Source: Patescibacteria group bacterium (GTDB taxonomy: Bacteria > Patescibacteriota > Patescibacteriia > UBA2591 > UBA6264). From it: 43,498 bases of DNA. The notes under the pieces were generated by a model, which saw only the letters and a program-made list of their open reading frames with translations, did no database searches and was not told where the DNA came from. Each line of letters starts with the position of its first letter. Within the stretch, counting starts at the first letter, position 1. Both the position numbers and the translations under genes were made by a program. Shown here piece after piece: positions 5,354 to 40,083 of the stretch. The stretch lies in assembly GCA_018896315.1 (NCBI GenBank), contig JAHIMV010000081.1, forward strand, positions 1 through 43,498, in the 5' to 3' direction.

Positions 5354-5441
5354 ACGCGATACCAATATGCCAATACATACGAATAATACGAATAAAGCAT
5401 TAGTATAATTAGTATTAATTCGTATATTAGCATCAATTTTT
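5354..5441. repeat. family D 'acgaat' long imperfect inverted repeat, copy 1 (before rsmI)
   Basis: Left arm cgataccaatatgccaatacatacgaataatacgaat. Right arm attagtataattagtattaattcgtatattagcatca. Runs from the stop codon to the ATG. Confidence 0.8.
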
Positions 5442-6116: not shown

Positions 6117-6178
6117 GAACCTTTCGCTTCGCTCAAGAACCTTGAAATTAAAAGACATTTTAATTATAAAATAGAAAT
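6112..6178 (+). repeat. family F element (rsmI-metG spacer)
   Basis: cataagaacctttcgcttcgctcaagaaccttgaaattaaaagacattttaattataaaatagaaatATG. Confidence 0.7.
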
Positions 6179-7684: not shown

Positions 7685-7705
7685 ATTTTGTTTGATATTT
7701 TCAAT

Positions 7706-7719
7706 CCGCCAGTTGGCGG
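7706..7719. repeat. ccgcc-NNNN-ggcgg mini hairpin after metG
   Basis: ccgccagttggcgg, the same stem as the rplD/dnaJ motif. Confidence 0.5.
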
Positions 7720-7746
7720 AGTAGAAAATTCAATTCCAAAATTATA

Positions 7747-7876
7747 ACCCAGCACTTATTTTGCGAAACAGAAACAAAATTTTATATATATAACAAGGTA
7801 AAATAAGTTTATTTTTCGCGAAAGAGCGTTAAAACACTCTTTCGCCAAGACATACCTAGCAAAATAAGTGCTGGGT
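7747..7876 (+). repeat. family B 130-nt palindromic element, copy 1 (metG-cvpA spacer)
   Basis: 16-bp terminal inverted repeat acccagcacttatttt / aaaataagtgctgggt and inner hairpin gcgaaagag..ctctttcgc. By eye identical to copy 3, including the following gctcaaa. Confidence 0.9.
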
Positions 7877-7936
7877 GCTCAAATTTCTAATAAAATTTAA
7901 TTCGCTACGCTTTAAAATTTTAACAAATTTGGCACT

Positions 7937-8437: not shown

Positions 8438-8552
8438 ACGTAATACTAATCTACGAATGACATACGAATACTACGAATATTAGTATAATTAGTATCAATT
8501 CGTCCTAGACCCGTTCGGGACGGACTAGGGTATATTGGCATTGATTTTTTTT
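8438..8552. repeat. family D copy 2 (before nrdD) with a nested 27-nt GC hairpin
   Basis: ctacgaatgacatacgaatactacgaat / attagtataattagtatcaattcgt[..]atattggcattga. Insert at 8504..8530. Confidence 0.8.
8504..8530. repeat. 27-nt GC-rich hairpin nested in family D copy 2
   Basis: cctagacccgttcgggacggactaggg interrupts aattcgt|atatt, which is continuous in the other D copies. Confidence 0.7.
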
Positions 8553-16115: not shown

Positions 16116-16257
16116 AAAACACTTTAATTATAGGAACCTTTCGCTACGCTCAAGAACCCTGCTATTCGCTACGTTTATAGTAAGAACCTGCTTCGCAGAA
16201 CCTTGAAATTAAATATTATTATATAGAAGTTAAAGTATTTTAATTATAAAGTATTGT
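16116..16257 (+). repeat. family F element, expanded (nrdD-nrdG spacer)
   Basis: ggaacctttcgctacgctcaagaaccctg .. gtaagaacctgcttcgcagaaccttgaaattaaat .. ttttaattataaagtattgtATG. Confidence 0.7.
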
Positions 16258-20911: not shown

Positions 20912-21770
20912 AATACTTGTTTTTGGCATTGGCATACTTTTATTAATTAATTTAATTGTTTTAGGTTATTGGTTTGTTTTGTTTAATGGAAATGTTTCTG
21001 AAGATAGTTTGAAGGTAGTTTTTTTAAATGTTGGACAAGGAGATGCGGCCTTGATTCAGACATCTCAACAAGATATTTTAGTTGATGGAGGTCCTGATAA
21101 AAATATTATTTATAAATTGGATAAGTATATTCCTTTTTATGATAGAGAAATAGACTTGATGATTTTAACTCATTTAGATTCAGACCACTTAACAGGTTTG
21201 GTTGAGGTTTTAAAACGTTATCCAGTTAAGAAAATTATAAGCAATGGATTAAAAAATTATGATTCAATAGCGTTGGAGTGGGAGAGACTAATCCAAGAAA
21301 AAAATATTCCTCAACAAATAGCAGATATTCCTTTAACTATTTTGTTAGATGAGCAAACCTTGATAGAATTTTTATGGCCTAGCCAAGATTTAATTAAAGA
21401 ATCAAAGGGTGATGATAATTTTACTTCTTTAGTTTTTAAATTAACTCATGGAAATAATAAATTTTTGTTTACCGGAGATGTGCCAAAAGAAGTAGAGGAA
21501 ATATTAGCAGCAACAGAGAATGATTTAAAAGCGGACGTTTTAAAGGCTGGCCATCATGGTTCAAAATATTCTTCAACTATGGAATTTTTAAGCAAGGTTA
21601 AGCCTAAATACGGGGTTATTTCTTGCGGTGAGAATAATTTTGGTCATCCTAGTTTGCGGGTTTTAAAAAATTTAGAAAATATTAGGGCGGAGATTTTAAG
21701 AACAGACCAATTAGGAGATGTTATATTTTTAAGTGATGGACAAGAATTAACATTGACATCTAAAAAATAA
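20892..21770 (+). CDS. membrane-anchored metallo-beta-lactamase-fold hydrolase (stand-alone ComEC C-terminal domain)
   Basis: N-terminal TM, then LNVGQGDA, THLDSDH, AGHHGS motifs. Overlaps comEC by 20 nt. Confidence 0.8.
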   Translation: MSIKKFKILVFGIGILLLINLIVLGYWFVLFNGNVSEDSLKVVFLNVGQGDAALIQTSQQDILVDGGPDKNIIYKLDKYIPFYDREIDLMILTHLDSDHLTGLVEVLKRYPVKKIISNGLKNYDSIALEWERLIQEKNIPQQIADIPLTILLDEQTLIEFLWPSQDLIKESKGDDNFTSLVFKLTHGNNKFLFTGDVPKEVEEILAATENDLKADVLKAGHHGSKYSSTMEFLSKVKPKYGVISCGENNFGHPSLRVLKNLENIRAEILRTDQLGDVIFLSDGQELTLTSKK

Positions 21771-21833
21771 ATTGTTATCCTGTTTTTAATTGTAGTTTAT
21801 TTTTAAAATAATATAATAAAAATATATCTGCCC

Positions 21834-21978
21834 ACACCCCAATTTTGCGAGATATGTCATGGCAACGCACTCGCTTCGCTCGGGCTTATTCAGCCACTGC
21901 GTTGAGAGGACTAAACAAGAGATGTTAAAATAATAAAAAATGTTAGCAGAGTTTAAGGTGGCAAAATTGAGGCGGGGT
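21834..21978 (+). repeat. family C ~145-nt element with ACCCC..GGGGT termini upstream of the atypical kinase gene
   Basis: acaccccaattttgc ... ggcaaaattgaggcggggt outer pairing, inner caacgca..tgcgttg stem, followed by the same gctcataattgtaacg leader module as at rplE. Confidence 0.6.
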
Positions 21979-22030
21979 GCTCATAATTGTAACGAAATTT
22001 TTTTCGTTACACTCATAAATTTCGACAATT
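21979..22030 (+). promoter_or_regulatory. leader module L2 (gctcataattg + gtaacgaaat hairpin + caattATG) before the atypical kinase gene
   Basis: gctCATAATTGtaacgaaatttttttcgttacactcataaatttcgaCAATTATG. The 5' cataattg is complementary to caattatg, which contains the start codon. Confidence 0.75.
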
Positions 22031-24479: not shown

Positions 24480-24604
24480 AAATGCGATACCAATATACTA
24501 ATACATACGAATTATACGAATAATTTGAAGTATTAGTGTGTCGTAATGTTAAATTTGTATTATTAGTATCAATTTGTATATTAGCATTGATTTAGTTCTT
24601 TGTA
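24480..24604. repeat. family D copy 3 (tuf-rpsJ spacer)
   Basis: gcgataccaatatactaatacatacgaattatacgaat ... attagtatcaatttgtatattagcattgat. Confidence 0.8.
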
Positions 24605-24964: not shown

Positions 24965-24974
24965 AGAGTTTTTT

Positions 24975-25018
24975 CAAAAATTTTAAAGTTGAGATTAGCG
25001 AAACTGCAGAAATTTTTG
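24975..25018 (+). repeat. H1 hairpin module, copy after the rpsJ stop
   Basis: caaaaattt ..agcgaa.. aaatttttg (9-bp stem). Preceded by taa-agag and followed by ttagaaaaccttt plus core A. Confidence 0.7.
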
Positions 25019-25031
25019 TTAGAAAACCTTT

Positions 25032-25089
25032 ACCCTGTTAAATAATTTCGCTTTTAGCGAAATTGCCGCAAGGCGGCATTTAACAGGGT
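25032..25089 (+). repeat. family A Y-shaped 58-nt core, copy a (rpsJ-rplC spacer)
   Basis: accctgttaaat[aatttcgc-tttt-agcgaaatt][gccgc-aag-gcggc]atttaacagggt: a 12-bp outer stem enclosing two hairpins. Confidence 0.9.
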
Positions 25090-25337
25090 TCTCGAAAATC
25101 TAACAAAATTTTCATCGTTCCCTAAACTCGAAAATTTTGAGATTTTCGGAATAATTTGATCAGGGGAAAGCAAGGTTAAAAGTGAACTCTTAAGTTTCAT
25201 AAGAGTTATTGTTTAATCAAACTTTTTCTTAATTTTGAGGTTCAAAATTCTCTAAAGAGATGACAATTTAGTCAAATTTTTCACAGCCAGGCTTAAGGTC
25301 AGAGAAATTTGGTCTCAAACCTGGTTTTTTAATACCT

Positions 25338-25955: not shown

Positions 25956-26650
25956 TGTTAAAAGTTTCAGTTTACAATCAAGAAGGAAAAGTAATTGGAC
26001 AAGAAGAATTAGATCCTGAAATTTTTGGATTGGAAAGTAAACCTGATTTAATTCATCAAACCGTAGTATCTCTTATGGCTAATCAGCGCCATGCTTTTGC
26101 TCATGTTAAAACTCGTTCAGAAGTACGGGGAGGAGGAAGAAAACCTTGGAGACAAAAGGGGACTGGTCGGGCTCGAGCAGGCACAATTCGTTCACCTTTG
26201 TGGCGGGGCGGTGGAATCACTTTTGGTCCAGATAAAAATAGGAATTATTCTCAGAAAATTAATAGAAAAGCTAAAAGACAAGTGCTTTTTATGTGTCTTT
26301 CTGATAAAGTTAAAGAAGAAAGAATGTATGTTTTGGATAAGTTAGAAATGCCTGAAATCAAAACCAAAAAGTTTACTCAAATTTTATTTAAGTTGATTCC
26401 TGAATATAAAGACAAGACTTCCGCCAAAGGCGGATCCGCCTCCGGCGGAAAAAAAATCCTTTTTGGCTTGCCTGAGAAGGATTTAAATATAATTAGATCT
26501 GTACGAAATATTAAAGGTTTAAAAACTATGCCGATTATTAATTTAAATATTTTAGACTGTTTAAAGGCAGACTATTTATTAACCACTTTAGACGGTGTAA
26601 AAAAAATTCAAGAACATTTTAAAATAGATGGCTCACCATTAAATAAATAA
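25955..26650 (+). CDS. rplD: 50S ribosomal protein L4
   Basis: RSEVRGGGRKPWRQKGTGRARAGTIRSPLWRGGG. ATG overlaps the rplC stop by 1 nt. Contains a GC-rich hairpin pair in frame at 26421..26448. Confidence 0.93.
   Translation: MLKVSVYNQEGKVIGQEELDPEIFGLESKPDLIHQTVVSLMANQRHAFAHVKTRSEVRGGGRKPWRQKGTGRARAGTIRSPLWRGGGITFGPDKNRNYSQKINRKAKRQVLFMCLSDKVKEERMYVLDKLEMPEIKTKKFTQILFKLIPEYKDKTSAKGGSASGGKKILFGLPEKDLNIIRSVRNIKGLKTMPIINLNILDCLKADYLLTTLDGVKKIQEHFKIDGSPLNK
26421..26448 (+). repeat. GC-rich double-hairpin motif inside rplD
   Basis: ccgcc-aaa-ggcgg at ccgcc-tcc-ggcgg, translated SAKGGSASGG. GC-rich island in an AT-rich gene. Confidence 0.75.
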
Positions 26651-26735
26651 AACATGGGAATTTTCACCCAGTTTAGAAATTTAATGGGGTAAAAGAAGTA
26701 ATTGATTGAAAATTAGATATATTAAAAATACTTTT

Positions 26736-27218
26736 ATGGCAGAAAAAAGACTTAAAAAATTTCTAACGGGGTTTAAAAGAAAAATAAAGCCAGCGGTTAA
26801 GAAAGAAGAAGTTAAAAAGGAAAAAGTGGAAAAGGCAAAGGAAATAGAAAAAGATGAGAAAATAGAAGATAAAAAGCAACAGAAATCTAAAACAGAAATA
26901 AAAAAAACTGTTAAAAAATTAATACAAAGACAAGGAGTTGATATCTCAATTTTACTAAGACCAATTATTACAGAAAAAGCAACTGACCAAGAGGTCAAGG
27001 GATGCTATATTTTTGAAGTTAATTCAAAGGCAAACAAAATTTCAATAAAAAAAGCAATTGAACAAATTTACGGAGTCAAACCCTTAAGAGTAAATATTAT
27101 TCGAGTACGTGGGAAAAAAGTAAGATATGGGCGTTCAACAGGTAAAACAAAGGCATGGAAAAAAGCTTTAGTTTTTCTAAAAAAAGGAGATAAGCTGCAG
27201 TTTGTGCAGAAATCCTAA
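26736..27218 (+). CDS. rplW: 50S ribosomal protein L23 with ~70-aa Lys/Glu-rich N-terminal extension
   Basis: L23 core ILLRPIITEKA..FEV...ANK..IK.A.E..YGVKP..VN begins about residue 75. First ATG is at 26736 (track start 26706 is TTG). Confidence 0.85.
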   Translation: MAEKRLKKFLTGFKRKIKPAVKKEEVKKEKVEKAKEIEKDEKIEDKKQQKSKTEIKKTVKKLIQRQGVDISILLRPIITEKATDQEVKGCYIFEVNSKANKISIKKAIEQIYGVKPLRVNIIRVRGKKVRYGRSTGKTKAWKKALVFLKKGDKLQFVQKS

Positions 27219-28238: not shown

Positions 28239-28248
28239 AGGGCTTTCT

Positions 28249-28282
28249 TAAAAATTTCAAGTTGTAGACGTAGAAATTTTTA
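28249..28282 (+). repeat. H1 hairpin module, copy after the rplB stop
   Basis: taaaaatttc .. gaaattttta (10-bp stem, different sequence, same position). Preceded by taa-agggcttt. Confidence 0.7.
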
Positions 28283-28295
28283 TTAGAAAACCTTT

Positions 28296-28353
28296 ACCCT
28301 GTTAAATAATTTGTAAAGCAAATTAAAAATCAAAAATTTTTGTTTAACAGGGT
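28296..28353 (+). repeat. family A core, copy b (rplB-rpsS spacer), divergent inner hairpins
   Basis: Same outer stem accctgttaaa..tttaacagggt. Both inner hairpins are replaced by different self-complementary sequences (aatttg-taaag-caaatt; aaaaat-caa-aaattttt). Confidence 0.85.
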
Positions 28354-28383
28354 GCTCGAAAATTAATAAATTAATTTTTTCGC
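28354..28383 (+). promoter_or_regulatory. leader module L1 (gctc + AT palindrome + ttcgc-ATG) before rpsS
   Basis: gctcgaaaattaataaattaattttttcgc then ATG. No SD-like purine tract. Confidence 0.8.
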
Positions 28384-28680
28384 ATGGGAAGAAGTTTGAA
28401 AAAAGGACCTTGGGTTGACCCAAGATTACTCAAAAAAATTTCCAATTTAAAAAGAGGAGATAAAACAATAATTAAAACCTGGTCACGTAATTCAACAATT
28501 ACTCCGGAAATGATTGGTTTTACAATTGGGGTCCATAATGGTAAGACACATTTATCAGTATTTATTGTTGAAAATATGGTCGGGCACAAGCTTGGAGAAT
28601 TTTCTCCGACCAGAAAATTTGTCAAACATGGAGGTAAGATGCAAAGAGGATTAGAAGCAGCCGTTAAGAAATCAAAATAA
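28384..28680 (+). CDS. rpsS: 30S ribosomal protein S19
   Basis: [34 protein letters not shown]. Confidence 0.95.
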
Positions 28681-28883
28681 TCCCTCACCCTTTGGCGATA
28701 ATACTTCGCATTAGTGCTTCGCATTTTTAAACAAGTGTATTTAAAATTAAAAATAAAAAATCAAAATGCAAAATTTAGGTATCAAAAATTTTTCTTGAAA
28801 ATTTTTGATGATTGTATTTTATTTAATTTTAACATTTTTAATTGTCATTTTGATATTTGATATTTACATTTTACATTTATATT
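28681..28883. repeat. AT-rich long-hairpin spacer (rpsS-rplV), E-like
   Basis: Central 11-bp hairpin atcaaaaattt/aaatttttgat (28781..28809) flanked by an A-rich left arm and a quasi-complementary T-rich right arm (..ttttaattgtcattttgatattt). Confidence 0.6.
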
Positions 28884-29438
28884 ATGCAAGTAAAAGCTAA
28901 AGGAAAATATTTAAGAATATCCAGTAAAAAGATGAGGCTGGTAACAGACCTAATTAGAGGAATGGACTTAAAAGATGCCTTAGATTCTTTAAATTTTGTT
29001 CCTAAAAAGTCAGCCCGTTTTATTAACAAGGTTTTAAAGTCAGCTTTAGCTAATGCAGAACATAATTTTGATTTAAAAAAAGAAAATCTTTTTATTAAAG
29101 AAATTTTTGTTAATGAAGGGCCTACTCTTAAGAGATGGAGGCCAAGAGCTTTTGGTCGGGCCGGACAGGTTCGTAAAAGAAGCTCACATTTAGAAATTAT
29201 TTTAGGGGAAAAAATTCCTAGTTCAGAGACCAGATCTGTTAAAACAAAAATTAAAGAACCAATAATTGAATCTATTTCTAAAGATAAGATTGAAGAAAAA
29301 AAGCCGGTGGAAGAAACAGAAGAAGAAACGTTAAATCGACTTCAAGGAAAACATCAATCTAAACCAAATTATTACCAAAAAAAGGGTAAAGGGTTTAGAG
29401 GGAGTTTAAAAAAGATTTTTAGAAGAAAAACTATATAA
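28884..29438 (+). CDS. rplV: 50S ribosomal protein L22 with ~70-aa C-terminal extension
   Basis: MQVKAKGKYLRISSKKMRLV.DLIRG..V..AL..L.F, RA.GRA..VRKR.SH. Internal ATG at 28884 chosen over the track start 28857. Confidence 0.88.
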   Translation: MQVKAKGKYLRISSKKMRLVTDLIRGMDLKDALDSLNFVPKKSARFINKVLKSALANAEHNFDLKKENLFIKEIFVNEGPTLKRWRPRAFGRAGQVRKRSSHLEIILGEKIPSSETRSVKTKIKEPIIESISKDKIEEKKPVEETEEETLNRLQGKHQSKPNYYQKKGKGFRGSLKKIFRRKTI

Positions 29439-29448
29439 AGAGCTTTGT

Positions 29449-29481
29449 CTGAAATTTGGAGAACTAGCGAACAAATTTCAG
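29449..29481 (+). repeat. H1 hairpin module, copy after the rplV stop
   Basis: ctgaaatttg ..agcgaa.. caaatttcag (10-bp stem). Preceded by taa-agagctttgt. Confidence 0.7.
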
Positions 29482-29494
29482 TAACAAAACCTTT

Positions 29495-29622
29495 ACCCAG
29501 CACTTATTTTGCGAAGCAAAAACAAAATTTTATATATAACAAGATAAGATAGGTTTATTTCTCGCGAAAGAGCGTTAAAACACTCTTTCGCTAAGACTCA
29601 CTTGGCAGAATAAGTGCTGGGT
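29495..29622 (+). repeat. family B element, copy 2 (rplV-rpsC spacer), diverged
   Basis: Same termini (acccagcacttatt / aataagtgctgggt) and the same inner gcgaaagag hairpin, with several substitutions and indels. Confidence 0.85.
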
Positions 29623-29687
29623 GCTCAAATTTGTAACGAAATTTCCTTCGTTACTTCGTAACTCGTAAATTTAGACAAATTTAGCAT
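29623..29687 (+). promoter_or_regulatory. leader module L2 variant before rpsC
   Basis: gctcaaatttgtaacgaaatttccttcgttac...gacaaatttagcat then ATG. 5' caaatttg and 3' caaattt co-vary relative to the other copies. Confidence 0.7.
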
Positions 29688-30332
29688 ATGGGAAGAAAAG
29701 TAAATCCAAAAATTTTCCGTATTCCCTTAATCAGAGATTGGGAATCAAAGTGGTTTGCAAAAAAGCACGAATTTAAACGATTCTTAAAAGAGGATATACA
29801 GATTAGAGAGTTTTTATCAAAAAGACTAAAGAATTGTGGTATTTCTAATATTAGTATTGAAAGGTTGGCTAATATTATAAGAATCAGCATATCCACTGGT
29901 AAGCCTGGATTAATTATTGGTCGAGGAGGTCTTGATATTGAAAAATTAAAAAAAGAATTAAAAGTTTTTGTCAGCGATGGAATTGTTTTAGAAGTTAATG
30001 TTATTGAAGAGAAAAAACCAATGCTTTCCGCTGATGTGATTTTAGAAGGAGCAATTGCTGATTTAGAAAAAAGGTTTCCTTTCCGTCGAGTGATGAAAAA
30101 AGTTATTAGACAGGCTAAAACAAGCGAGGCCAAAGGAATGAAAATCATCCTTAGCGGACGTTTGGGGGGAGTTGAGATTTCTCGATCAGAAAAATTGATT
30201 TGGGGGAACTTACCGCTTCATACTTTGCGAGCAGACATTGATTATGCTCGTGGCACAGCCGCAACAACATATGGTTCAATCGGAGTTAAAATCTGGGTTT
30301 ATCGAGGAGAAAAATTTAGTAATTCTGTCTGA
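29688..30332 (+). CDS. rpsC: 30S ribosomal protein S3
   Basis: MGRKVNPKIFRI..W.SKWFA, KH domain GKPGLIIGRGG, GRLGG.EI.R.E. Confidence 0.95.
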   Translation: MGRKVNPKIFRIPLIRDWESKWFAKKHEFKRFLKEDIQIREFLSKRLKNCGISNISIERLANIIRISISTGKPGLIIGRGGLDIEKLKKELKVFVSDGIVLEVNVIEEKKPMLSADVILEGAIADLEKRFPFRRVMKKVIRQAKTSEAKGMKIILSGRLGGVEISRSEKLIWGNLPLHTLRADIDYARGTAATTYGSIGVKIWVYRGEKFSNSV

Positions 30333-30378
30333 TATTTTTAAGTCCAGAGGACGTAGAAAATTCAGCTACAGAATTGCT

Positions 30379-30508
30379 ACCCAGCACTTATTTTGCGAAA
30401 CAGAAACAAAATTTTATATATATAACAAGGTAAAATAAGTTTATTTTTCGCGAAAGAGCGTTAAAACACTCTTTCGCCAAGACATACCTAGCAAAATAAG
30501 TGCTGGGT
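30379..30508 (+). repeat. family B element, copy 3 (rpsC-rplP spacer)
   Basis: Reads identically to 7747..7876. Confidence 0.9.
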
Positions 30509-30539
30509 GCTCAAAAATTAATAAATTAATTTTTTTCGC
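30509..30539 (+). promoter_or_regulatory. leader module L1 before rplP
   Basis: gctcaaaaattaataaattaatttttttcgc then ATG. Confidence 0.8.
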
Positions 30540-30959
30540 ATGTTAATGCCCAAGAAACAAAAGTATAGAAAGAGCCACAAAGGAAGAAGGAGAACAAAAA
30601 GTCAAGCAACAAGGGGAACTACGGTTAGTTTTGGTGATTTTGGATTAAAAACATTAGAGCATCGTTGGATCACTGCTCGTCAAATTGAGACGGTGCGCCG
30701 AACACTTACCCGAGTATTTAAAAAAAGAGGAAAGATTTGGATTAGAATTTTTCCTAATAAACCAGTTACGGCTAAAAGTTCAGAGATTCCTATGGGCGGG
30801 GGTAAAGGAGCGGTTGACCACTATGTCGTTGCGGTAAAACCAGGAATGATTCTTTTTGAGGTCACCGGAATTGATAAAGAATCGGCCCAAAAAGCGTTTA
30901 AAGCAGCTTCATATAAATTGCCAGTGAAAACTAAGTTTGTTAGCAAAGATAATATTTAA
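30540..30959 (+). CDS. rplP: 50S ribosomal protein L16
   Basis: MLMPKKQKYRK.HKGR.., RWITARQIE..RR.LTR, MGGGKG. Confidence 0.95.
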   Translation: MLMPKKQKYRKSHKGRRRTKSQATRGTTVSFGDFGLKTLEHRWITARQIETVRRTLTRVFKKRGKIWIRIFPNKPVTAKSSEIPMGGGKGAVDHYVVAVKPGMILFEVTGIDKESAQKAFKAASYKLPVKTKFVSKDNI

Positions 30960-30962
30960 AAA

Positions 30963-31148
30963 ATGAAGACAGAGGAACTTAAACCAAAAACAAAAAAAGA
31001 ACTGGAAAGATTGTTAGAAGATTCTAGGGAAAAACTACGTAATCTACATTTTGATATTCAAATGAAGCAGTCAAAAAATGTAAGGGAAATAAGAAAAGCA
31101 AAGAAATTAATTGCTAAAATACTTACATTTATTAATCAAAAAAATTAA
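30963..31148 (+). CDS. rpmC: 50S ribosomal protein L29
   Basis: 61 aa, LKPKTKKELERLLEDSREKLRNLHF, conserved position between rplP and rpsQ. Confidence 0.85.
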   Translation: MKTEELKPKTKKELERLLEDSREKLRNLHFDIQMKQSKNVREIRKAKKLIAKILTFINQKN

Positions 31149-31149
31149 T

Positions 31150-31401
31150 ATGGCCAAAAAAAGATTTCAAGGAGTAGTGACTAGTGATAAGATGGATAAA
31201 ACCATTGTTGTTATGATAAATCGGACAAAGGTGCATCCTATCTATAAAAAGAGATATCAGGTTAGTAAAAAATATAAAGTTCATGATCAGAAAAATGAAG
31301 CTAAAATTGGTGATCAAGTTACTTTTGAGGAATGCAGACCTTTGTCAAAAGATAAAAAGTGGAGATTAATAACGATTTTGTCTGAAAAAGCGAGCTCGTA
31401 G
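31150..31401 (+). CDS. rpsQ: 30S ribosomal protein S17
   Basis: MAKKRFQGVVTSDKMDKTIVV......HPIYKKR...SKKYKVHD..N.A.IGD.V...E.RPLSK.K.W. ATG at 31150 (the track start 31111 overlaps rpmC). Confidence 0.92.
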   Translation: MAKKRFQGVVTSDKMDKTIVVMINRTKVHPIYKKRYQVSKKYKVHDQKNEAKIGDQVTFEECRPLSKDKKWRLITILSEKASS

Positions 31402-31430
31402 AGCGAAGGTTTTTTGGTAACAAAATCGTT

Positions 31431-31488
31431 ACCCTGTTAAATAATTTCGCTAAAAGCGAAATTGCCGCAGGGCGGCATTTAACAGGGT
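31431..31488 (+). repeat. family A core, copy c (rpsQ-rplN spacer)
   Basis: As copy a, but the loop of hairpin 1 is aaaa instead of tttt and hairpin 2 is gccgc-agg-gcggc. Confidence 0.9.
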
Positions 31489-31518
31489 GCTCAAAAATTA
31501 ATAAATTAATTTTTTCGC
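31489..31518 (+). promoter_or_regulatory. leader module L1 before rplN
   Basis: gctcaaaaattaataaattaattttttcgc then ATG. aaaaattaat/attaattttt is a 10-bp self-complement. Confidence 0.8.
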
Positions 31519-31890
31519 ATGATTCAACCGGAAACAAGACTAAAAGTTATTGATAACACTGGAGCTAAAGAAATACAGTGTATTCGCGTTTTAGGCGGTT
31601 ATAGGAAGAGATATGCTCGTATTGGTGATATTATTACAGCGACAATTAAAAAAGCTGTTCCTCACACTTCAGTAAAAAAAGGAGAGGTGATTCATGCGGT
31701 TATTGTTAGAACAAAAAAAGAAACTCGTCGGGCCAATGGTGTTTATATCAGATTTGATGATAATGCCGCGGTGATTGTTGATAGAAAGACTAAAGAACCA
31801 AAAGGAGGTAGAGTTTTTAGTGTTGTTGCTAGAGAATTAAGAAAAAAAGGTTTTACCAAGATCGTCTCTTTAGCCCCCGAAGTACTTTAG
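31519..31890 (+). CDS. rplN: 50S ribosomal protein L14
   Basis: [27 protein letters not shown]...RYA.IGD.I. Confidence 0.96.
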
Positions 31891-31949
31891 TGATTTTATC
31901 TGATAAAATCGAGGCCGCCGGGCGAAGATTTTTCAGCTACAAAATCGCT

Positions 31950-32007
31950 ACCCTGTTAAATAATTTCGCTTTTAGCGAAATTGCCGCAAAGCGGCATTTA
32001 ACAGGGT
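31950..32007 (+). repeat. family A core, copy d (rplN-rplX spacer)
   Basis: accctgttaaataatttcgcttttagcgaaattgccgcaaagcggcatttaacagggt. Confidence 0.9.
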
Positions 32008-32037
32008 GCTCAAAAATTAATAAATTAATTTTTTCGC
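32008..32037 (+). promoter_or_regulatory. leader module L1 before rplX
   Basis: Identical to the rplN copy. Confidence 0.8.
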
Positions 32038-32346
32038 ATGAAAATAAAAAAAGGTGACACAGTACAAATAATTAATGGTAAAGATAAAGGAAAAAAGGGG
32101 AAAGTGATCCGATCTTTACTTAAAGAAGGCAAGATAGTTGTTGAGGGTTTAAATGTGGTAACTAAGCATGTTCGGCCAAAAAAATCTGGAGAAAAGGGAC
32201 AAAGAATCAAGATGGCTACCCCTTTGTATGTTTCAAAGGTAATGTTGATTTGTCCTCATTGCAAAAAAAGAGTTAGAGTGGGATACAAAATTTTAACTGA
32301 TAATAGAAAAAAAAGAATTTGTCGAAAATGTAAAGATATAATATAA
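32038..32346 (+). CDS. rplX: 50S ribosomal protein L24 (C-terminal CxxC..CxxC)
   Basis: MKIKKGDTVQIINGKDKGKKGKV (KOW motif). C-terminus CPHCKKRVRVGYK...RICRKCKD. Confidence 0.92.
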   Translation: MKIKKGDTVQIINGKDKGKKGKVIRSLLKEGKIVVEGLNVVTKHVRPKKSGEKGQRIKMATPLYVSKVMLICPHCKKRVRVGYKILTDNRKKRICRKCKDII

Positions 32347-32356
32347 AGGGCTTTGT

Positions 32357-32392
32357 CTAAATTTTGGAGTCCGAAGGGCGAACAAAATTTGG
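32357..32392 (+). repeat. H1 hairpin module, copy after the rplX stop
   Basis: ctaaattttg ..ggcgaa.. caaaatttgg. Preceded by taa-agggctttgt. Confidence 0.7.
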
Positions 32393-32405
32393 TAACAAAA
32401 CCTTT

Positions 32406-32463
32406 ACCCTGTTAAATAATTTCGCTTTTAGCGAAATTGCCGCAGGGCGGCATTTAACAGGGT
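32406..32463 (+). repeat. family A core, copy e (rplX-rplE spacer)
   Basis: accctgttaaataatttcgcttttagcgaaattgccgcagggcggcatttaacagggt. Confidence 0.9.
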
Positions 32464-32520
32464 GCTCATAATTGTAACGAAATTTATTTCGTTACGAGTA
32501 ACTTATAAATTTCGATAATT
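32464..32520 (+). promoter_or_regulatory. leader module L2 before rplE
   Basis: gctCATAATTgtaacgaaatttatttcgttacgagtaacttataaatttcgatAATTATG. Confidence 0.75.
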
Positions 32521-33069
32521 ATGGCAGATTTAAAGCAAATATATTTAAAAAAAGTTGTTCCAGAATTAGTCAAAAAATTTGATTATCAGAACAAGATGGC
32601 TGTTCCTAAGATAGAAAAAATTGTTGTTAATTCTGGATTAAGTCGTGGAACTACAGAGAAAAATTCTAAATATGTTGACATGGTTAGTCAGACAATTGCT
32701 AAAATTACAGGACAACAGCCAGTTAAAAATTTAGCAAAAAAATCAATTGCTGGTTTTAAAATTAGAGAAGGAATGCCAGTTGGCGTAAGTACAACTCTGC
32801 GAGGCCCGAAAATGTATAATTTTCTAGATAAATTAATTAATATTGCTTTACCAAGAATAAGAGATTTTAGAGGACTAAAAAAACAGAGTATTGATCAACA
32901 GGGTAATTTATCAATCGGTTTTAAAGAGCAGGTAGTTTTTCCAGAGATTAATCAGGAAAATCTTGAATCAACCCATGGTTTACAAGTAGTGATTACAACA
33001 ACAACTCAAAGTAAAGAAAAGGCATTAGAATTATTTAAATTATTAGGATTTCCCTTTAGAAAAGAATAA
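32521..33069 (+). CDS. rplE: 50S ribosomal protein L5
   Basis: LKQIYLKKVVPEL.KKF.Y.N.M.VPKIEKIVVN.G.., LP.IRDFRGL. Confidence 0.95.
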   Translation: MADLKQIYLKKVVPELVKKFDYQNKMAVPKIEKIVVNSGLSRGTTEKNSKYVDMVSQTIAKITGQQPVKNLAKKSIAGFKIREGMPVGVSTTLRGPKMYNFLDKLINIALPRIRDFRGLKKQSIDQQGNLSIGFKEQVVFPEINQENLESTHGLQVVITTTTQSKEKALELFKLLGFPFRKE

Positions 33070-33078
33070 ATTTGACAT

Positions 33079-33264
33079 ATGGCAACTAAAGGACAAGTAG
33101 TTAAATCAAATAAAGAGCCTAAATATCGGACACGAAAAGTACGACGTTGTTGGCGTTGCGGAAGAAGACATGGCTATATGAGAGAATTTGATGTTTGTCG
33201 CATTTGCTTTAGAGAATTAGCAACTAAGGGGGCAATCCCAGGTATAAGAAAATCATCTTGGTAA
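33079..33264 (+). CDS. rpsN: 30S ribosomal protein S14, type Z (zinc form)
   Basis: 61 aa with [23 protein letters not shown]. Confidence 0.93.
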
Positions 33265-33402
33265 GATAAAAATTCAAATATCAAAAATTAAAAATCAAAA
33301 TGACATATCAAAATCTAAAATTAATAAATAATAAAAATTATCCCGAAGGGATACCTAAATTTTGCATTTTGCATTTTGCATTTTGCATTTAACGAAACGT
33401 TT
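33265..33402. repeat. AT-rich long-hairpin spacer (rpsN-rpsH), E-like
   Basis: Left arm atcaaaaattaaaaatcaaaatgac.., central tatccc-gaa-gggata hairpin (33339..33353), right arm four tandem ttttgca units. Confidence 0.6.
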
Positions 33403-33807
33403 ATGACTGATCCAATTGCCGACATGCTAACAAGAGTTCGTAATGCTTTGGCTATTAAAAAACCAGAGATAGTTTTGCCTTATTCCAAGGTTAAGTTTAA
33501 TATTGCTAAAGTATTAGAAAAAGAAAAATTGATTGAAAAAGTGGAAATAATTGATGCGGCGAAAAGTAAAACAGGATTTAAGCAGTTAAAAATTAAATTA
33601 AAGTACAATGAAGACAATCAACCAGTTATTGGTACTTTAAAAAGAATCAGCAGCCCAGGTCAACGTATTTATGTTAAAAAAGATAAAATTCCCAAAGTTT
33701 TAAATGGTTTGGGAATGAATATTTTATCTACCTCTAAAGGCTTAATGACCGGACAAGAAGCTAGAGAGAAGGGTTTAGGAGGAGAATTAATTTGTGAAAT
33801 ATGGTAA
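33403..33807 (+). CDS. rpsH: 30S ribosomal protein S8
   Basis: MTDPIADMLTRVRNAL... Internal ATG at 33403 chosen; the track start 33376 lies in the ttttgca tandem repeat. Confidence 0.93.
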   Translation: MTDPIADMLTRVRNALAIKKPEIVLPYSKVKFNIAKVLEKEKLIEKVEIIDAAKSKTGFKQLKIKLKYNEDNQPVIGTLKRISSPGQRIYVKKDKIPKVLNGLGMNILSTSKGLMTGQEAREKGLGGELICEIW

Positions 33808-34074
33808 CGCGATACCAATATACGAATGCATGCGAATGATACGAATAAAGCACACGAATAGTAAAACATAATGCTAATCTACGAATGTATGCGAATGCTA
33901 CGAATTACGAATAAAGCGCGCAAATTATTATTCGCGTCATTCGCGTGAATTAGCGTATTAGTGTCGCTACTTTTAACACAACATGAATGCGCCCACACGA
34001 ATATTAGTATAATCAGTATCCATTCGTATATTAGCATCGATTAAATTAATTCGTATATTAGCATCGATATTATT
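33808..34074. repeat. family D copy 4 (rpsH-rplF spacer), expanded, 267 nt
   Basis: cgcgataccaatatacgaatgcatgcgaatgatacgaat ... attcgtatattagcatcgat duplicated in tandem at the 3' end. Many acgaat/attcg units. Confidence 0.8.
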
Positions 34075-34623
34075 ATGTCAAGAATTGGTAAAAAAATTAT
34101 TTCTGTTCCAGAAAATGTTGAAATAAAAGTACAAGATCAACAGATTTTAGTCAAAGGGCCAAAAGGCGAATTAAAGCAATTTTTGCCAGATTTTGTTAAA
34201 ATTGAAATAAAAGATAATCAATTGAAAGTTTTAGTTAAAAATCCTGAAGAAAAAGAACAAAAAGCTTGTTGGGGGACGTTTGCTAGTCTGATTTCTAATA
34301 TGATTCAAGGGGTAACCCAAGGATTTAAAAAAAAACTAGAATTAGTAGGGGTGGGTTATCGGGCAGAAAAACAAGGAGATAAGATTATTCTTAATGTTGG
34401 TTTTTCCCATCCAGTAGAATATTTAGTTCCTAAAAATATTGAAGCAGACGTTGAACAAAGAACAATTATTATTCGGGGATTTGATAAACAGTTAGTAGGA
34501 GAAACAGCAGCACAGATTAGGAAGTTTAGAAAACCAGAACCATATAAGGGAAAGGGAATTAAATATTCCGATGAAGTAATTCGTCGAAAAGCTGGCAAAA
34601 AGGTTGCTGGAGCAGGAACATAG
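34075..34623 (+). CDS. rplF: 50S ribosomal protein L6
   Basis: MSRIGKKIISVPENVEI......I.VKGPKGEL, GVGYRA, PEPYKGKGI.Y. Confidence 0.95.
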   Translation: MSRIGKKIISVPENVEIKVQDQQILVKGPKGELKQFLPDFVKIEIKDNQLKVLVKNPEEKEQKACWGTFASLISNMIQGVTQGFKKKLELVGVGYRAEKQGDKIILNVGFSHPVEYLVPKNIEADVEQRTIIIRGFDKQLVGETAAQIRKFRKPEPYKGKGIKYSDEVIRRKAGKKVAGAGT

Positions 34624-34911
34624 AAAAATCAAAAATCAAAAATCAAAAATCAAAATTATTTTATTAAAAAATCAAAAAAGAACAAGTTCCTCTCAAGCGA
34701 GAGTAAAATGGAAAACGTAAAAAGGAATTGCTGATTGCCGATTGTTGATTGTTTGGAAAGATAGACAAAGGTTTCAATTAGCAATTAACAATTAAGACTA
34801 GTTTTTAATTTTTACATTTTAATTTGTCATTTTACATTTTGATGGTTCGACTTTGCTCACCATCAATCCTGAGCGTAGTCGAAGGATTGATATTTAAATT
34901 TTACATTTTCT
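34624..34911 (+). repeat. family E element, copy 1 (rplF-rplR spacer), carrying a nested 50-nt hairpin element
   Basis: (aaaatc)n left arm, centre gaacaagttcctctcaagcgagag..aattgctgattgccgattg..caattagcaattaacaatt, right arm tttacattttaatttgtcattttacattttga. Confidence 0.85.
34841..34890 (+). repeat. 50-nt hairpin element nested in family E copy 1
   Basis: gatggttcgactttgctcaccatcaatcctgagcgtagtcgaaggattga. Absent from the otherwise collinear copy 2 (..ccattttga|tatttaaatt..). ttga occurs on both sides. Confidence 0.9.
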
Positions 34912-35277
34912 ATGGCTGAAGTAAAAAAACAATTGCAGAGAGAAAAAAGACATCGCCGAGTTCGCGCAAAAATTAATGGGACAAGTGAATGTCCAAGACT
35001 CTGTGTTTTTAGAAGCAATAAATATATTTATGTGCAGTTGATTGATGATCAAAAAGGGATAACTTTATTATCTGTTACAGATAATAAACCAAAAACAAAA
35101 TCTAAAACTAAAGAATCTTCAAATATAAATAGCGCCTTAGAGGTTGGAAAAATTTTAGCAAAAAAAGCTATTGAAAAGAAAATTAAAAAAATAGTTTTTG
35201 ATCGTGGAGGATATAAGTATCATGGTCGAGTTAAGGCAATAGCGGAGGGAGCAAGGCAAGGTGGACTTAAGTTCTAA
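34912..35277 (+). CDS. rplR: 50S ribosomal protein L18
   Basis: [49 protein letters not shown]. Confidence 0.95.
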
Positions 35278-35499
35278 ATCAAAAATCAAAAATCAAAAAT
35301 CAAAATTATTTCATTAGAAAACTAAATAAGAACAAGTTCCTCGCAAGCGAGAGTAAAATGGAAAACATAAAAAAGAATTGCTGATTATTCGGAAAGATAT
35401 ACAAAAATGTCAATTAGCAATTAACAATTAAGATTAGTTTTTAATTTTTACATTTTAATTTGTCATTTTCCATTTTGATATTTAAATTTTACATTTTCT
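35278..35499 (+). repeat. family E element, copy 2 (rplR-rpsE spacer)
   Basis: Collinear with copy 1 apart from a short internal deletion and absence of the nested hairpin. Ends ..tatttaaattttacattttctATG exactly as copy 1 does. Confidence 0.85.
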
Positions 35500-35988
35500 A
35501 TGACAAAAGAAAAAAGAATAAAACGTAGGGAGTTGCCAGGAGTCAAAATTGAGCCAGAGTTTATTCAGCAATTAGTTGATTTAGCTAGAGTAACTAGAGT
35601 TGTTAAGGGAGGAAAACGTTTAAGTTTTCGTGCCTGTATGGTTATTGGAAATAAAAAAGGAGAAATTGGAATGGGATTAGCTAAAGGGACAGATGTCGCC
35701 GGAGCTATTCATAAAGCAGTTCGTAAGGCAAATAAAAATTTAATCAAAGTAACAATTGTTAATGATACTATCCCTCATTGGGTTAGAGTTAAGTATGGAG
35801 CGGCTCAAGTTTTATTACGACCAGCCAGAAAAGGCCATGGAATTGTCGCTGGAGGAGCTGTTAGAACAGTTTTATCTTTATCAGGTATTAGAAATGTTAC
35901 CGCTAAAATTCTGGGGTCAAAGAGTAAAATGAACAATGTTAGAGCAACGATTAAAGCTTTACAGTCATTAAAAATTCCTAAGGTTTAA
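35500..35988 (+). CDS. rpsE: 30S ribosomal protein S5
   Basis: V.L.RVTRVVKGGKR.SFRA..V.GN..G..G.G.AK, RPA..G.GI.AGG.VR. Confidence 0.95.
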   Translation: MTKEKRIKRRELPGVKIEPEFIQQLVDLARVTRVVKGGKRLSFRACMVIGNKKGEIGMGLAKGTDVAGAIHKAVRKANKNLIKVTIVNDTIPHWVRVKYGAAQVLLRPARKGHGIVAGGAVRTVLSLSGIRNVTAKILGSKSKMNNVRATIKALQSLKIPKV

Positions 35989-35992
35989 AATT

Positions 35993-36472
35993 ATGACAGT
36001 TAAATTATCTAATTTAAAACCAGGGTCTAAGGCAAGACGCCGCTCAAGAAGAGTTGGCAGGGGAAATAATGCTTCTGATCCAGGCACTTATTCTGGCCGG
36101 GGCATGAAGGGACAAAGATCAAGATCTGGCGGAAAAAAGGGTCTTAAAATTAGAGGCCTAAGAAGAAACTTGAGAAGCATGCCAAAATTAAAGGGATTTA
36201 ATAAAAGAAAGTCTTTAAGCATTAAACCAATAAGTTTGAAAGATTTAGAAAACAAATTCAAAGAAAATGAAATTGTTGATCTTGCTAAATTGGTTAAGAG
36301 TGGTTTAATTAAAAAGAAAGACCGTCGAGTTAAAATTTTAGCTCAAGGGAAGATAACAAAAAAATTAACTATTAAAGCTCATCAATTTTCAAAAGCGGTG
36401 GAAAAGGCTGTTAAAAAAGCAGGGGGAAAGATAGTGATTTTATCTGATAAAATAGAGCTTAAAAAGCGATAA
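35993..36472 (+). CDS. rplO: 50S ribosomal protein L15 (last 12 codons lie in a repeat cassette)
   Basis: LSNLKPG..ARR...RVGRG...G.....GRG.KGQ..RSG. Follows rpsE directly, with no rpmD. Confidence 0.93.
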   Translation: MTVKLSNLKPGSKARRRSRRVGRGNNASDPGTYSGRGMKGQRSRSGGKKGLKIRGLRRNLRSMPKLKGFNKRKSLSIKPISLKDLENKFKENEIVDLAKLVKSGLIKKKDRRVKILAQGKITKKLTIKAHQFSKAVEKAVKKAGGKIVILSDKIELKKR

Positions 36473-36493
36473 TTTTTCAGCTACAAAATCGCT

Positions 36494-36551
36494 ACCCTGT
36501 TAAATAATTTCGCTTTTAGCGAAATTGCCACAGGGTGGCATTTAACAGGGT
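36494..36551 (+). repeat. family A core, copy f (rplO-secY spacer)
   Basis: Hairpin 2 is gccac-agg-gtggc, a double compensatory change relative to gccgc..gcggc. Confidence 0.9.
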
Positions 36552-36583
36552 GCTCGAAAATTAATTAACATTAACTTTCTCGC
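36552..36583 (+). promoter_or_regulatory. leader module L1 variant before secY
   Basis: gctcgaaaattaattaacattaactttctcgc then ATG. Still an imperfect AT palindrome. Confidence 0.7.
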
Positions 36584-37861: not shown

Positions 37862-38127
37862 AAAAATCAAAAATTAAATATCAAAAATCAAAATTATTTT
37901 ATTAGAAAATTAAATAGGAACAAGTTCCTCGCAAGCGAGAGCAAAATGGAAAACATAAAAAGGAATTGCTGATTGCTGATTGCCGATTGTTGATTGTTTG
38001 GAAAGATAGACAAAGGTTTCAATTAGCAATTAATAGCTAAGAATAGTTTTTAATTTTTACATTTTAATTTGTCATTTTCCATTTTGATATTTACATTTTG
38101 CATTTGACCGAGTGTTAACGAGGAAAT
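37862..38127 (+). repeat. family E element, copy 3 (secY-adk spacer)
   Basis: Collinear with copies 1 and 2 through ..gtcattttccattttgatattt, then diverges into an SD-containing adk leader. Confidence 0.85.
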
Positions 38128-38799: not shown

Positions 38800-38869
38800 T
38801 TATACTAATCATTATTTGAATCATTTTTATTTGTATTATTAGTATGAATTTGTATATTAGCATTGCATT
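38773..38869. repeat. family D copy 5 (adk 3' end to the map start)
   Basis: cgataccaatatacgaatgcatactaa is read as adk codons RYQYTNAY-stop. Right arm attagtatgaatttgtatattagcattgc. Confidence 0.8.
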
Positions 38870-39631: not shown

Positions 39632-39639
39632 CTTTTTAA

Positions 39640-40083
39640 ATGAAATTTTTAGGTATTGATCCAGGAAAAAGATATATTGGATTAGCCATGGCTGATGACC
39701 AAGTAAAAATAGCTATGCCTTATCAGGTTTTAGATATGAATGACCATGAATCTTTGTTTAAAGAATTAGAAAAAATTGTAGCTAAGGAAAAAATACAAAA
39801 AATTATTGTTGGTTATCCAATTGGTATGTCGGGAAAACCAACAGAGCAAACCAAGATAACAGAACAATTTATAAGACAGTTAAAAAAACAGGTCAACCCT
39901 GTTAAATCCCGCAAAGCGGGAATTTCGCCAAAGGCGAAATTATTTAACAGGGTAAATATTCCAATAATTAGATTTGACGAAAGATTAAGCTCAAAAATGG
40001 CTGACAAGCTGTCATCTGGTCAGAAGCAGAATCACGCTGTAGCCGCTAATATTATTCTACAAGATTATTTAGACAAAAATTAA
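39640..40083 (+). CDS. ruvX: YqgF/RuvX putative pre-16S rRNA nuclease / Holliday junction resolvase-like
   Basis: LGIDPGKRYIGLA, IVVGYPIGMSG, FDERLSS. Contains an in-frame 60-nt copy of the Y-shaped repeat at 39895..39954. Confidence 0.85.
   Translation: MKFLGIDPGKRYIGLAMADDQVKIAMPYQVLDMNDHESLFKELEKIVAKEKIQKIIVGYPIGMSGKPTEQTKITEQFIRQLKKQVNPVKSRKAGISPKAKLFNRVNIPIIRFDERLSSKMADKLSSGQKQNHAVAANIILQDYLDKN
39896..39953 (-). repeat. family A core, copy g, inverted orientation, inside the ruvX coding sequence
   Basis: accctgttaaat[cccgc-aaa-gcggg][aatttcgcc-aaa-ggcgaaatt]atttaacagggt. Hairpin order is reversed relative to copies a-f. Translated in frame as NPVKSRKAGISPKAKLFNRV. Confidence 0.9.

Follow-up and report, generated by a model that had tools for sequence, protein, structure and literature searches.

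Why do several essential ribosomal-protein genes of one bacterium begin directly behind the same short sequence? The question is raised by a 43.5-kb stretch of DNA with 31% G+C from a member of the Patescibacteria, within the candidate phyla radiation (CPR) (contig JAHIMV010000081.1, positions 1 to 43,498 of the forward strand; this whole stretch is the window in what follows). In it the motif GCTC(A/G)AAAATTAATAAATTAATTTTT(T)TCGC, here called leader L1, occurs as exact copies directly 5′ of the ATG of rpsS, rplP, rplN and rplX, and as a variant before secY. A preliminary description of this DNA had read the shared leader as the sign of a common mechanism of initiation or regulation. Comparison with relatives, which were found by SecY homology search and form a graded identity series (three-digit handles, L002 onwards), points elsewhere. 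We consider it probable, at roughly three in four, that L1 is the 3′-terminal module of mobile palindromic insertion elements that bring a portable leader independent of a Shine–Dalgarno (SD) sequence, and not a dedicated regulatory leader.

The leader as the end of a larger repeat

The four exact copies of L1 all lie on the + strand, at 28354–28383, abutting the rpsS ATG at 28384, at 30509–30539 before rplP (ATG at 30540), at 31489–31518 before rplN (ATG at 31519) and at 32008–32037 before rplX (ATG at 32038). The secY variant, GCTCGAAAATTAATTAACATTAACTTTCTCGC, occupies 36552–36583 on the same strand and abuts the ATG at 36584; it is ~70% similar to the other copies, having diverged in sequence and kept both the GCTC...CTCGC frame and the hairpin. 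These positions agree with the preliminary description. The 21-nt core of L1 is matched exactly four times on the + strand, whereas dinucleotide shuffles lead one to expect 0.03 matches, and therefore chance does not account for the copies. The sequence directly preceding L1, GGGTGCTC, occurs nine times, all on the + strand, against 0.19 expected. Across the genomes 12 copies of L1 were seen; every one points the same way as the gene behind it and runs right up to that gene's ATG, without a base in between. A scan of representative genomes for the L1 pattern returned one chance match only, in a gammaproteobacterial metagenome-assembled genome.

The A/T palindrome noted earlier within L1 is real and is predicted to fold as a 9-bp A–U hairpin closed by GC/GC, with a free energy of −5.3 kcal/mol and z = −3.0. 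Its variants retain the hairpin by compensatory changes, namely TTAGT/ACTAA in the relative L005 and GAAA-UUAAU/AUUAA-UUUC at secY.

Repeat finding in the window placed L1 at the 3′ end of a 137-nt repeat, D1 (six copies), of which it makes up the final 30 nt, and also behind a 163-nt repeat, D2 (three copies). Repeats with L1 as their 3′ module measure 110–250 nt, and alignment together with folding gives them a common plan: upstream stop codon, hairpin A, hairpin B (arms ACCC.../...GGGT), GCTC, leader hairpin and downstream ATG. Two leader hairpins occur, L1 and the longer, unrelated L2, and they are interchangeable after GGGTGCTC; L2 leaders sit before rpsC, rplE and the genes at 7937 and 22031. 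In a complete element, (T)TCGC lies between the leader hairpin and the downstream ATG. The earlier statement that the initiation regions of these ribosomal-protein genes are copies of one repeat stands, the repeat being larger than L1.

Hairpin B comes in two types. The D1 type, as at 31431–31488 (+), is a 58-nt Y-shaped three-way junction without unpaired junction bases, built of ACCCTGTTAAAT, two sub-hairpins and ATTTAACAGGGT, and has further copies at 25032–25089, 28296–28353, 31950–32007, 32406–32463 and 36494–36551. Among nine D1-type copies from three genomes, each is exactly 62 nt long (GCTC included), 234 of 234 base-pair cells are Watson–Crick, all 26 pairs are kept and there are no G–U pairs. 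Variation is found in loops only, or is compensated on both sides at five pairs, and none of 500 shuffles matches this pattern (0/500). The structure of the element is under selection. The D2 type is a long stem, ACCCAGCACTTATTTTGC...GCAAAATAAGTGCTGGGT, found at 30379–30508 (+), where L1 of rplP stands behind it, at 7747–7876 and 29495–29622, and as a diverged copy at 21836–21978. Element-carrying spacers reach z-scores of −5.5 to −9.3 for folding when compared with mononucleotide shuffles.

Rfam scans at gathering and E-value thresholds returned tRNAs and chance microRNA matches only; ribozymes, introns and ribosomal-protein leaders were not among the results. The L005 copies contain a string resembling a hammerhead, GUGAUGAG...GAAA, which was rejected, as stem II is unpaired and the motif is absent from the window copies. 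Bridging of stop and start by pairing of a 5′ GCGAA with the 3′ UUCGC, which would preserve coupling, was likewise set aside as a general mechanism, since the pairing is present in some spacers only and is uncompensated.

Occupied and empty junctions among relatives

The SecY of the window shows 100% identity to an NCBI protein that carries the label "Patescibacteria group bacterium". The closest relatives, L002 and L003 (SecY 97% identical) and L004 (93%), keep the gene order of the window, their spacers measure 2–63 nt, and GGGTGCTC is absent from them. From rpsJ to map, intercistronic DNA adds up to 3255 nt in the window versus 454 nt in L002, with start codons corrected. Ancestral junctions in the relatives read TAA-tatt-ATG, TAA-at-ATG (S3–L16) and TAA-acaa-ATG, and L002 and L004 have the same short spacers in common. 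The start codons behind L1 are genuine: L002 and L004, rpsS included, have the same ATG and following codons 2–63 nt past the upstream stop, so that the objection by which the preliminary description could have been refuted, true starts that lie elsewhere, fails. One further difference in gene content was seen in this comparison: L002 and L003 have a SET-domain gene between map and ruvX (L002 12726–13103), which is absent from the window (39632–39639), L004 and L005.

Against these empty sites, the insertions of the window span exactly from stop codon to start codon and sometimes begin a few codons earlier. Hairpin A of the rplB–rpsS element (28239–28295, +) begins right behind the rplB stop codon, and that of the rplN–rplX element (31890–31949, +) opens with the motif GTGATTTTATCTGATAAAAT at the stop codon of rplN. 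The 5′ module of the rpsQ–rplN element (31376–31430, +) overlaps the 3′ end of rpsQ, and that of the rplO–secY element (36434–36493, +) overlaps the 3′ end of rplO, where L15 is 159 amino acids (aa) long versus 150 aa in L002. The boundary is sharp at the rpsC–rplP element, whose 5′ module lies at 30318–30378 (+). The window rpsC is 87–100% identical to L002 per 45-nt interval until ...GAAAAATTT and then switches to AGTAATTCTGTCTGA, and these first 15 nt of the element now code for the last four residues and the stop of S3. The 14-residue tail of S3, conserved in L002 and L004 and of similar length in L005, is thereby replaced by the element. Homology to L002 ends at this switch point, and the element sequence is shared with the distant L008, which has the same junction there.

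The family is present in L005 (SecY 87%), L006 (SecY 80%), L007 and L008, and absent from L009–L011 (SecY 81–85%). In L005, L1 stands before rplB, rpsS, rplP, rplE and rplF, in L006 before rplF, and in L007 and L008 before rplP; the sets of occupied junctions coincide only in part from one genome to the next. The core of hairpin B plus L1 shows 90–97% identity when the window is compared with L006 or L008, against 73% nucleotide identity for the flanking genes rplP and rplF. A core conserved above its flanks, at a patchy set of junctions, is in keeping with a repeat spreading within and between lineages and not with a conserved regulatory leader. An assembly artefact is excluded, as the same elements are found in independent NCBI and JGI assemblies.

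The absence of a purine-rich SD motif from L1, which the preliminary description had pointed out, was confirmed, and it proved not to set L1 apart. SD-like motifs occur in 5 of 42 upstream regions of the window and in 5 of 42 in-gene controls, and complementarity to the anti-SD sequence is, if anything, weaker upstream of genes than within them; in L002, strong anti-SD pairing is seen in only 1 of 32 upstream regions. GAGG-type motifs do exist at tuf, adk and ORF 1800 as had been reported, but SD-like motifs are not enriched upstream of window genes. Starts without SD are the rule in this genome and its relatives, and hence no specific property of L1. The anti-SD motif is absent from about half of Parcubacteria 16S rRNAs (PMC9297842); an Rfam scan found no rRNA in the window. 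We also observed a promoter-like module, ...GAACCTTGAAATTAAA...TATAAA, at 6117–6178 and 16116–16257, and in L002 (3698–3760) and L004 (1553–1627). The −10 hexamer of this GAACCTTGAAATTAAA module ends merely 7–8 nt 5′ of the ATG, a distance that suggests leaderless or near-leaderless mRNAs in the lineage.

GIY-YIG cassettes, sister elements and other repeats

A protein-coding version of the element was found in L005. Its rplW–rplB junction reads TAA...ACCCAGCCCTCT, a GIY-YIG open reading frame (ORF) of 70 aa, TAG, AGGGCTGGGT and GCTC-L1-ATG of rplB. The ORF, at 1474–1683 of L005 (Pfam PF01541, E = 3e-10), lies inside hairpin B, and other L005 copies have the same arms with ~70 nt in between. 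A search with the L005 protein gave 75 proteins of ~72 aa (range 70–75 aa); every named source is Patescibacteria, Parcubacteria or a candidate phylum within, and most are unnamed. In the 72-aa family the catalytic residues Y, G, R, H and E are invariant and the C-terminus is strongly conserved, and from this conservation the nuclease looks functional. No transposase was seen, the GIY-YIG nuclease being the only ORF between the arms of the elements.

In distant lineages, cassettes with the same arms likewise lie between co-oriented housekeeping genes. They were found between a pilin gene and pilM in L012 (3′ end AGGGCGGGGTGCTTCACTGCGTTTCGC-ATG), between rpmF and nusB in L014 (3′ end made of the arm, a 9-bp hairpin and GGC-ATG), between rnc and rpsP in L015–L020 (3′ end AGGGCGGGGTGCTCATTACATTCGC-ATG) and between clpB and mraZ in L023–L028 (3′ end AGGGCGGGGT-TACGTAAAATAAATTTTACTTC-ATG, the mraZ end being TTC-ATG). 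The 5′ arm is mostly ACCCCGCCCTCTAAGC or a near variant and stands just before the ATG of the nuclease; in the nusB copy it is ACCCCACCCCCT. Behind the 3′ arm, GCTC or a near variant follows at the pilM, nusB and rpsP cassettes, and the pilM and rpsP copies end in TTCGC-ATG. L1 and the 3′ ends of these two copies are thus in a common frame, GCTC...TTCGC-ATG, with the A/T hairpin in the middle of L1. A short hairpin right before the ATG of the host gene recurs among cassettes with unrelated sequences. In L012, a 210-aa protein with an N-terminal GIY-YIG domain (2332–2964) is encoded directly upstream of the 72-aa cassette with a similar ACCCCGC arm before it; it is possibly related to the nuclease, as a longer form with two domains. 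Scans of viral contigs with the 3′ arm of hairpin B and with the GIY-YIG arm gave chance matches only, the partner arm missing, and BLAST against phage and plasmid records gave no match.

Several sister elements in the window, all on the + strand, have other leaders. The rplX–rplE copy (32347–32520) has the same hairpins A and B and leader L2a; it ends in ...CGATAATT-ATGGCA, and rplE has one additional Ala codon compared with L002 and L004. The rplV–rpsC copy (29439–29687) consists of hairpin A, a D2-type hairpin B and leader L2b. Outside the ribosomal operon, a D2-type hairpin B with L2b lies upstream of a CvpA-family gene (7685–7936), and a diverged D2-like hairpin B with L2a, ending in AATT-ATGGCA, upstream of an adenylate-kinase-like gene (21771–22030). 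After the rpsJ stop codon, 24965–25156 holds hairpin A, a D1-type hairpin B, GGGTTCTC and an L2-like hairpin. This rpsJ–rplC copy is the only family member short of an ATG and precedes a conserved 181-nt rplC leader (25157–25337). The latter is conserved in L002 and L004, has a stem-loop and a T-run just before the rplC ATG and no Rfam match, and could be an attenuator-type regulator of downstream ribosomal genes.

Modules of the element are also found alone and inside genes. A lone D1-type hairpin B, ACCCTGTTAAAT-CCCGCAAAGCGGG-AATTTCGCCAAAGGCGAAATT-ATTTAACAGGGT, lies at 39895–39954 (+) in ruvX (39640–40083), in frame and with neither GCTC nor L1; this insertion of 60 nt (20 aa) is absent from the orthologues in L002, L004 and L005. 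In rplD (26420–26449), two GC mini-hairpins, TCCGCCAAAGGCGGA and TCCGCCTCCGGCGGA, both similar to sub-hairpin 2 of hairpin B, form a 27-nt in-frame insertion that makes L4 longer by 9 aa than in the relatives. At the 5′ end of rplW (26654–26771), a palindromic insertion of ~105 nt, CCCAGTTTAGAAATTT...AAATTTCTAACGGGG, sits just past the ancestral start ATGGGAATTTT, where a dead-end ORF of 12 codons now begins; a new start, ATGGCA at 26736, comes with the insertion and is in frame with the conserved L23 sequence FKRK...KPAVKK. This case, together with the ATGGCA of L2a and the extra Ala of rplE, suggests from few instances that the elements are able to carry the start codon itself.

Two further repeat families were seen in the window. 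The D3/D4 family fills rplF–rplR (34624–34911), rplR–rpsE (35278–35499) and secY–adk (37862–38127), and partly 28681–28883; its 5′ arm is rich in A (AAAAATC repeats) and its 3′ arm rich in T, and the copies share a leader end, ...TTTGTCATTTTCCATTTTGATATTTAAATTTTACATTTTCT-ATG, that includes TTGTCA-N17-TAAATT. Its copy at adk ends in a GAGGA SD-like motif, and the empty site of L002 is without GAGGA. The D7/D8/D12 family (motif type ACGAATA, ATTAGTA), at 5354–5441, 8438–8534, 24480–24604, 33808–34074 and 38800–38869, is a long imperfect palindrome from stop to start, ending ...ATTCGTATATTAGCATCGAT..-ATG before the gene at 5442, rpsJ, rplF and map, and is also present in L005 (L5–S14 and L22–S3). 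The ORF at 8535–16115 (2526 aa) encodes the anaerobic ribonucleotide reductase NrdD with three inteins that have LAGLIDADG homing-endonuclease domains, a further sign of a heavy load of selfish elements. Finally, 19424–21770 encodes a ComEC-type competence protein (19424–20911) followed by a metallo-beta-lactamase-fold protein; given ComEC, DNA uptake is a plausible route for the exchange of elements between strains.

Competing explanations and consequences

The alternative nearest to the preliminary description is that L1 is a dedicated cis-regulatory module, such as an operator palindrome or a factor-bound RNA hairpin, that co-regulates essential genes. Identical copies, a perfect palindrome immediately 5′ of the AUG and a hairpin kept in variants by compensatory changes speak for such a module, but the distribution of L1 speaks against it. 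The closest relatives carry the same genes behind their 2–63-nt spacers without L1, and at orthologous positions L1 is absent from L002, L003, L004, L009, L010 and L011. In L005 the set of genes is a different one and L1 is attached to a nuclease gene cassette, in the window it swaps with the unrelated L2 behind the same hairpin B, and no Rfam family matches it. We therefore hold co-regulation to be very improbable, and a common mechanism special to these genes is unsupported. Starts without SD are general, L1 is the 3′ end of larger repeats, the relatives lack it, and L005 differs in its genes and has the GIY-YIG cassette; the identity of the copies is better explained by common descent of a mobile repeat. 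It is scarcely credible, in turn, that long structured spacers are ancestral and were precisely deleted in the compact relatives with no recent insertion at all, even though S3–L16, L2–S19, L24–L5, L22–S3 and S8–L6 are occupied in more than one divergent genome. Deletion is unable to recreate the 14-codon S3 tail conserved in L002 and L004, whose short spacers are moreover the same, and copies are near-identical within a genome and far more alike between genomes than the flanking genes.

Two other proposals concern function and are compatible with a mobile origin. L1 and the 3′ arm of D1-type hairpin B might form an outward promoter, TTAACA-N17-TAAATT, giving each gene a transcript with a short leader. 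Many insertion sequences and Correia elements supply outward promoters, the hexamers are present at 28344, 31479 and 31998 and with an N18 spacer at 36542, and promoter-like hexamers end 6–8 nt before the ATG elsewhere in the window (upstream of 3995, 6179 and 16258). A scan nevertheless gave 57 matches versus 51 expected in shuffles, which is no enrichment, no −35 element follows from the D2-type hairpin B (rplP) or from the L005 arms AGGGCTGGGT, and TAAATT is a weak −10 element, so that we consider the promoter unlikely, if worth bearing in mind. By analogy, the hairpins might instead be RNA-processing or insulator sites, at which RNase III or another nuclease would cut hairpin B and the L1 hairpin would protect the new 5′ end. 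RNase III cleavage of rRNA intervening sequences is a precedent for the processing of hairpins, and the long, perfect and strongly selected stems would fit. Non-intron insertions that encode GIY-YIG proteins in CPR rRNA genes must likewise be removed from the rRNA (PMC11270868). Strand asymmetry is lacking, however, and D1-type hairpin B has no G–U pairs, and we regard processing as improbable.

Several observations weigh against our preferred explanation, that L1 is the end of a mobile element. A signature of insertion is poorly marked: a target-site duplication, TAA...TAA, surrounds the rpsJ–rplC copy only, the other copies replacing the spacer without duplication, and no co-conversion tract was seen beside the element, rpsC being L002-like up to the boundary. 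For individual junctions, independent precise loss in the relatives would be an alternative to gain, though a less parsimonious and less likely one. The GIY-YIG protein is a catalytic domain alone, closest to UPF0213 (structures 1zg2 and 1ywl) and SLX1, and thus no classic homing endonuclease, and we know of no precedent for a single-domain GIY-YIG protein acting as a transposase. A tblastn search found no GIY-YIG gene or remnant in the 43-kb window, and the link to the nuclease rests on one L1-bearing cassette, in L005, and on cassettes with the same arms but without L1. Summed fold energies of the sense and antisense strands, −916 versus −949 kcal/mol, are equal and do not tell an RNA-level role from a DNA-level one. 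The predicted probability of an unpaired AUG ranges from 0.25 to 0.95 among L1 copies, so that L1 does not clearly favour initiation, and in leader L2a the AUG is predicted to be almost fully sequestered (0.00–0.01). As accessibility in L1 is not uniformly high, the idea that L1 is simply an unstructured start region was also rejected.

When set beside known systems, the elements act like the Correia, REP/BIME and Rickettsia palindromic element (RPE) repeats and like free-standing homing-endonuclease cassettes, yet they fall short of what defines each of these, given that a transposase, a consistent target-site duplication, co-conversion of flanks and, in the nuclease, a DNA-binding domain are all lacking. 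They share with palindromic intergenic repeats the many near-identical copies (six of D1 and three of D2), the stable hairpins and the variation of sites among relatives. Correia elements of Neisseria (CREE/NEMIS) are ~100–150 bp long, bounded by inverted repeats, co-transcribed, form hairpins in mRNA, carry expression signals and vary between strains; a TA target duplication and an IHF site are typical of them, and promoters and RNase III sites have been documented in them. The present elements are similarly short, multicopy, bounded by inverted repeats, adjacent to genes and variable in presence, and would likewise be transcribed together with those genes, fold into hairpins in the mRNA and provide the neighbouring gene with expression signals. 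They differ in that no TA duplication, IHF site, promoter or RNase III site has been shown here, and in their exact fit to the interval from stop to start, their 3′ end at the start codon and their link to a GIY-YIG gene.

REP/BIME repeats and their RAYT genes offer another parallel, since there too the palindromes have compensated stems, the gene lies between palindrome arms and is far rarer than the copies without an ORF. Structured intergenic palindromes with compensated stems, a gene between the same arms and an ORF-less majority are found here as well, but the associated protein is a single-domain GIY-YIG nuclease, in contrast to the Y1 HUH transposase RAYT. REPs usually lie behind the 3′ ends of genes and supply no start contexts, whereas the present elements would supply one. 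RPEs are palindromic, insert in frame and are known mostly from within genes, which is how hairpin B sits in ruvX and the double mini-hairpin in rplD; we know of no nuclease gene or leader module associated with RPEs, and the present family has both a link to a nuclease gene and a leader module.

Among nuclease genes, the seg genes of T-even phages are free-standing GIY-YIG genes between conserved co-oriented essential genes, with hairpins near their own start that limit translation; Seg proteins have two domains, one of them DNA-binding, and their homing is directed at a single cognate site and co-converts the flanks. The cassettes resemble them in position and in having sites that are empty in relatives, but the protein has a single domain of ~72 aa, many junctions are occupied and no co-conversion tract was seen; a separate DNA-binding domain was not found in the 70–75-aa proteins. 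Closest in host group are the GIY-YIG ORFs in non-intron insertions of CPR rRNA genes (PMC11270868). These non-group I/II insertions likewise occupy scattered sites; they differ in lying inside rRNA genes, and leader-carrying insertions at cistron junctions are not described there, the comparison being one of descriptions only. We found no account of GIY-YIG cassettes at cistron junctions in the literature, where our coverage was incomplete and the result is weak evidence of novelty.

On the reading that L1 terminates a mobile element, the autonomous-looking form would be a gene for a ~72-aa single-domain GIY-YIG protein between the arms of hairpin B, and the window copies would be derivatives without the gene. 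Such elements would recently have replaced short spacers of the S10–spc–secY region, exactly from stop codon to start codon, and may have spread by way of the nuclease or by recombination after breaks. The ancestral spacers of 2–15 nt probably permitted coupling of termination and reinitiation. An insertion of 110–250 nt would part a gene from the upstream stop, and the downstream gene would then have to initiate on the 3′ end of the element. L1 is the only sequence available as the 5′ context of these genes, and as a working initiation region it would offer an A/U-rich, SD-free context with a weak hairpin ending 4–5 nt before the AUG. The copies that persist in the essential operon would be those whose 3′ end permits translation of the next gene, and the portable leader would be what lets an essential operon tolerate the insertion.

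L1 itself is ordinary in origin, as the end of a repeat; what is notable is the exact replacement from stop to start, the portable SD-independent leader and the single-domain GIY-YIG partner. We tentatively suggest, with less confidence than the mobile origin itself, that this is a hitherto undescribed type of CPR mobile element: a single-domain GIY-YIG gene like SLX1 or UPF0213 bracketed by inverted repeats, with abundant ORF-less derivatives that are Y-shaped or simple hairpins, replacing spacers from stop to start, sometimes in frame, and bringing its own 5′ stop context, a portable SD-independent leader and possibly the start codon. If so, the design of the element would permit it to colonise essential operons without polar damage, and an element that spans stop to start and carries the initiation context of the next gene would show how mobile DNA can enter the most conserved operon in a genome of ~1 Mb. 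A mobile function would in this way also be assigned to the 72-aa GIY-YIG proteins, a family that is widespread in Patescibacteria and uncharacterised. For annotation and the prediction of regulons, identical upstream sequences before essential genes in reduced genomes may be the ends of selfish repeats and not signs of co-regulation. L1 and L2 would be natural, transplantable SD-independent leaders that evidently support the expression of ribosomal proteins and SecY, in a group with many lineages that lack the anti-SD.

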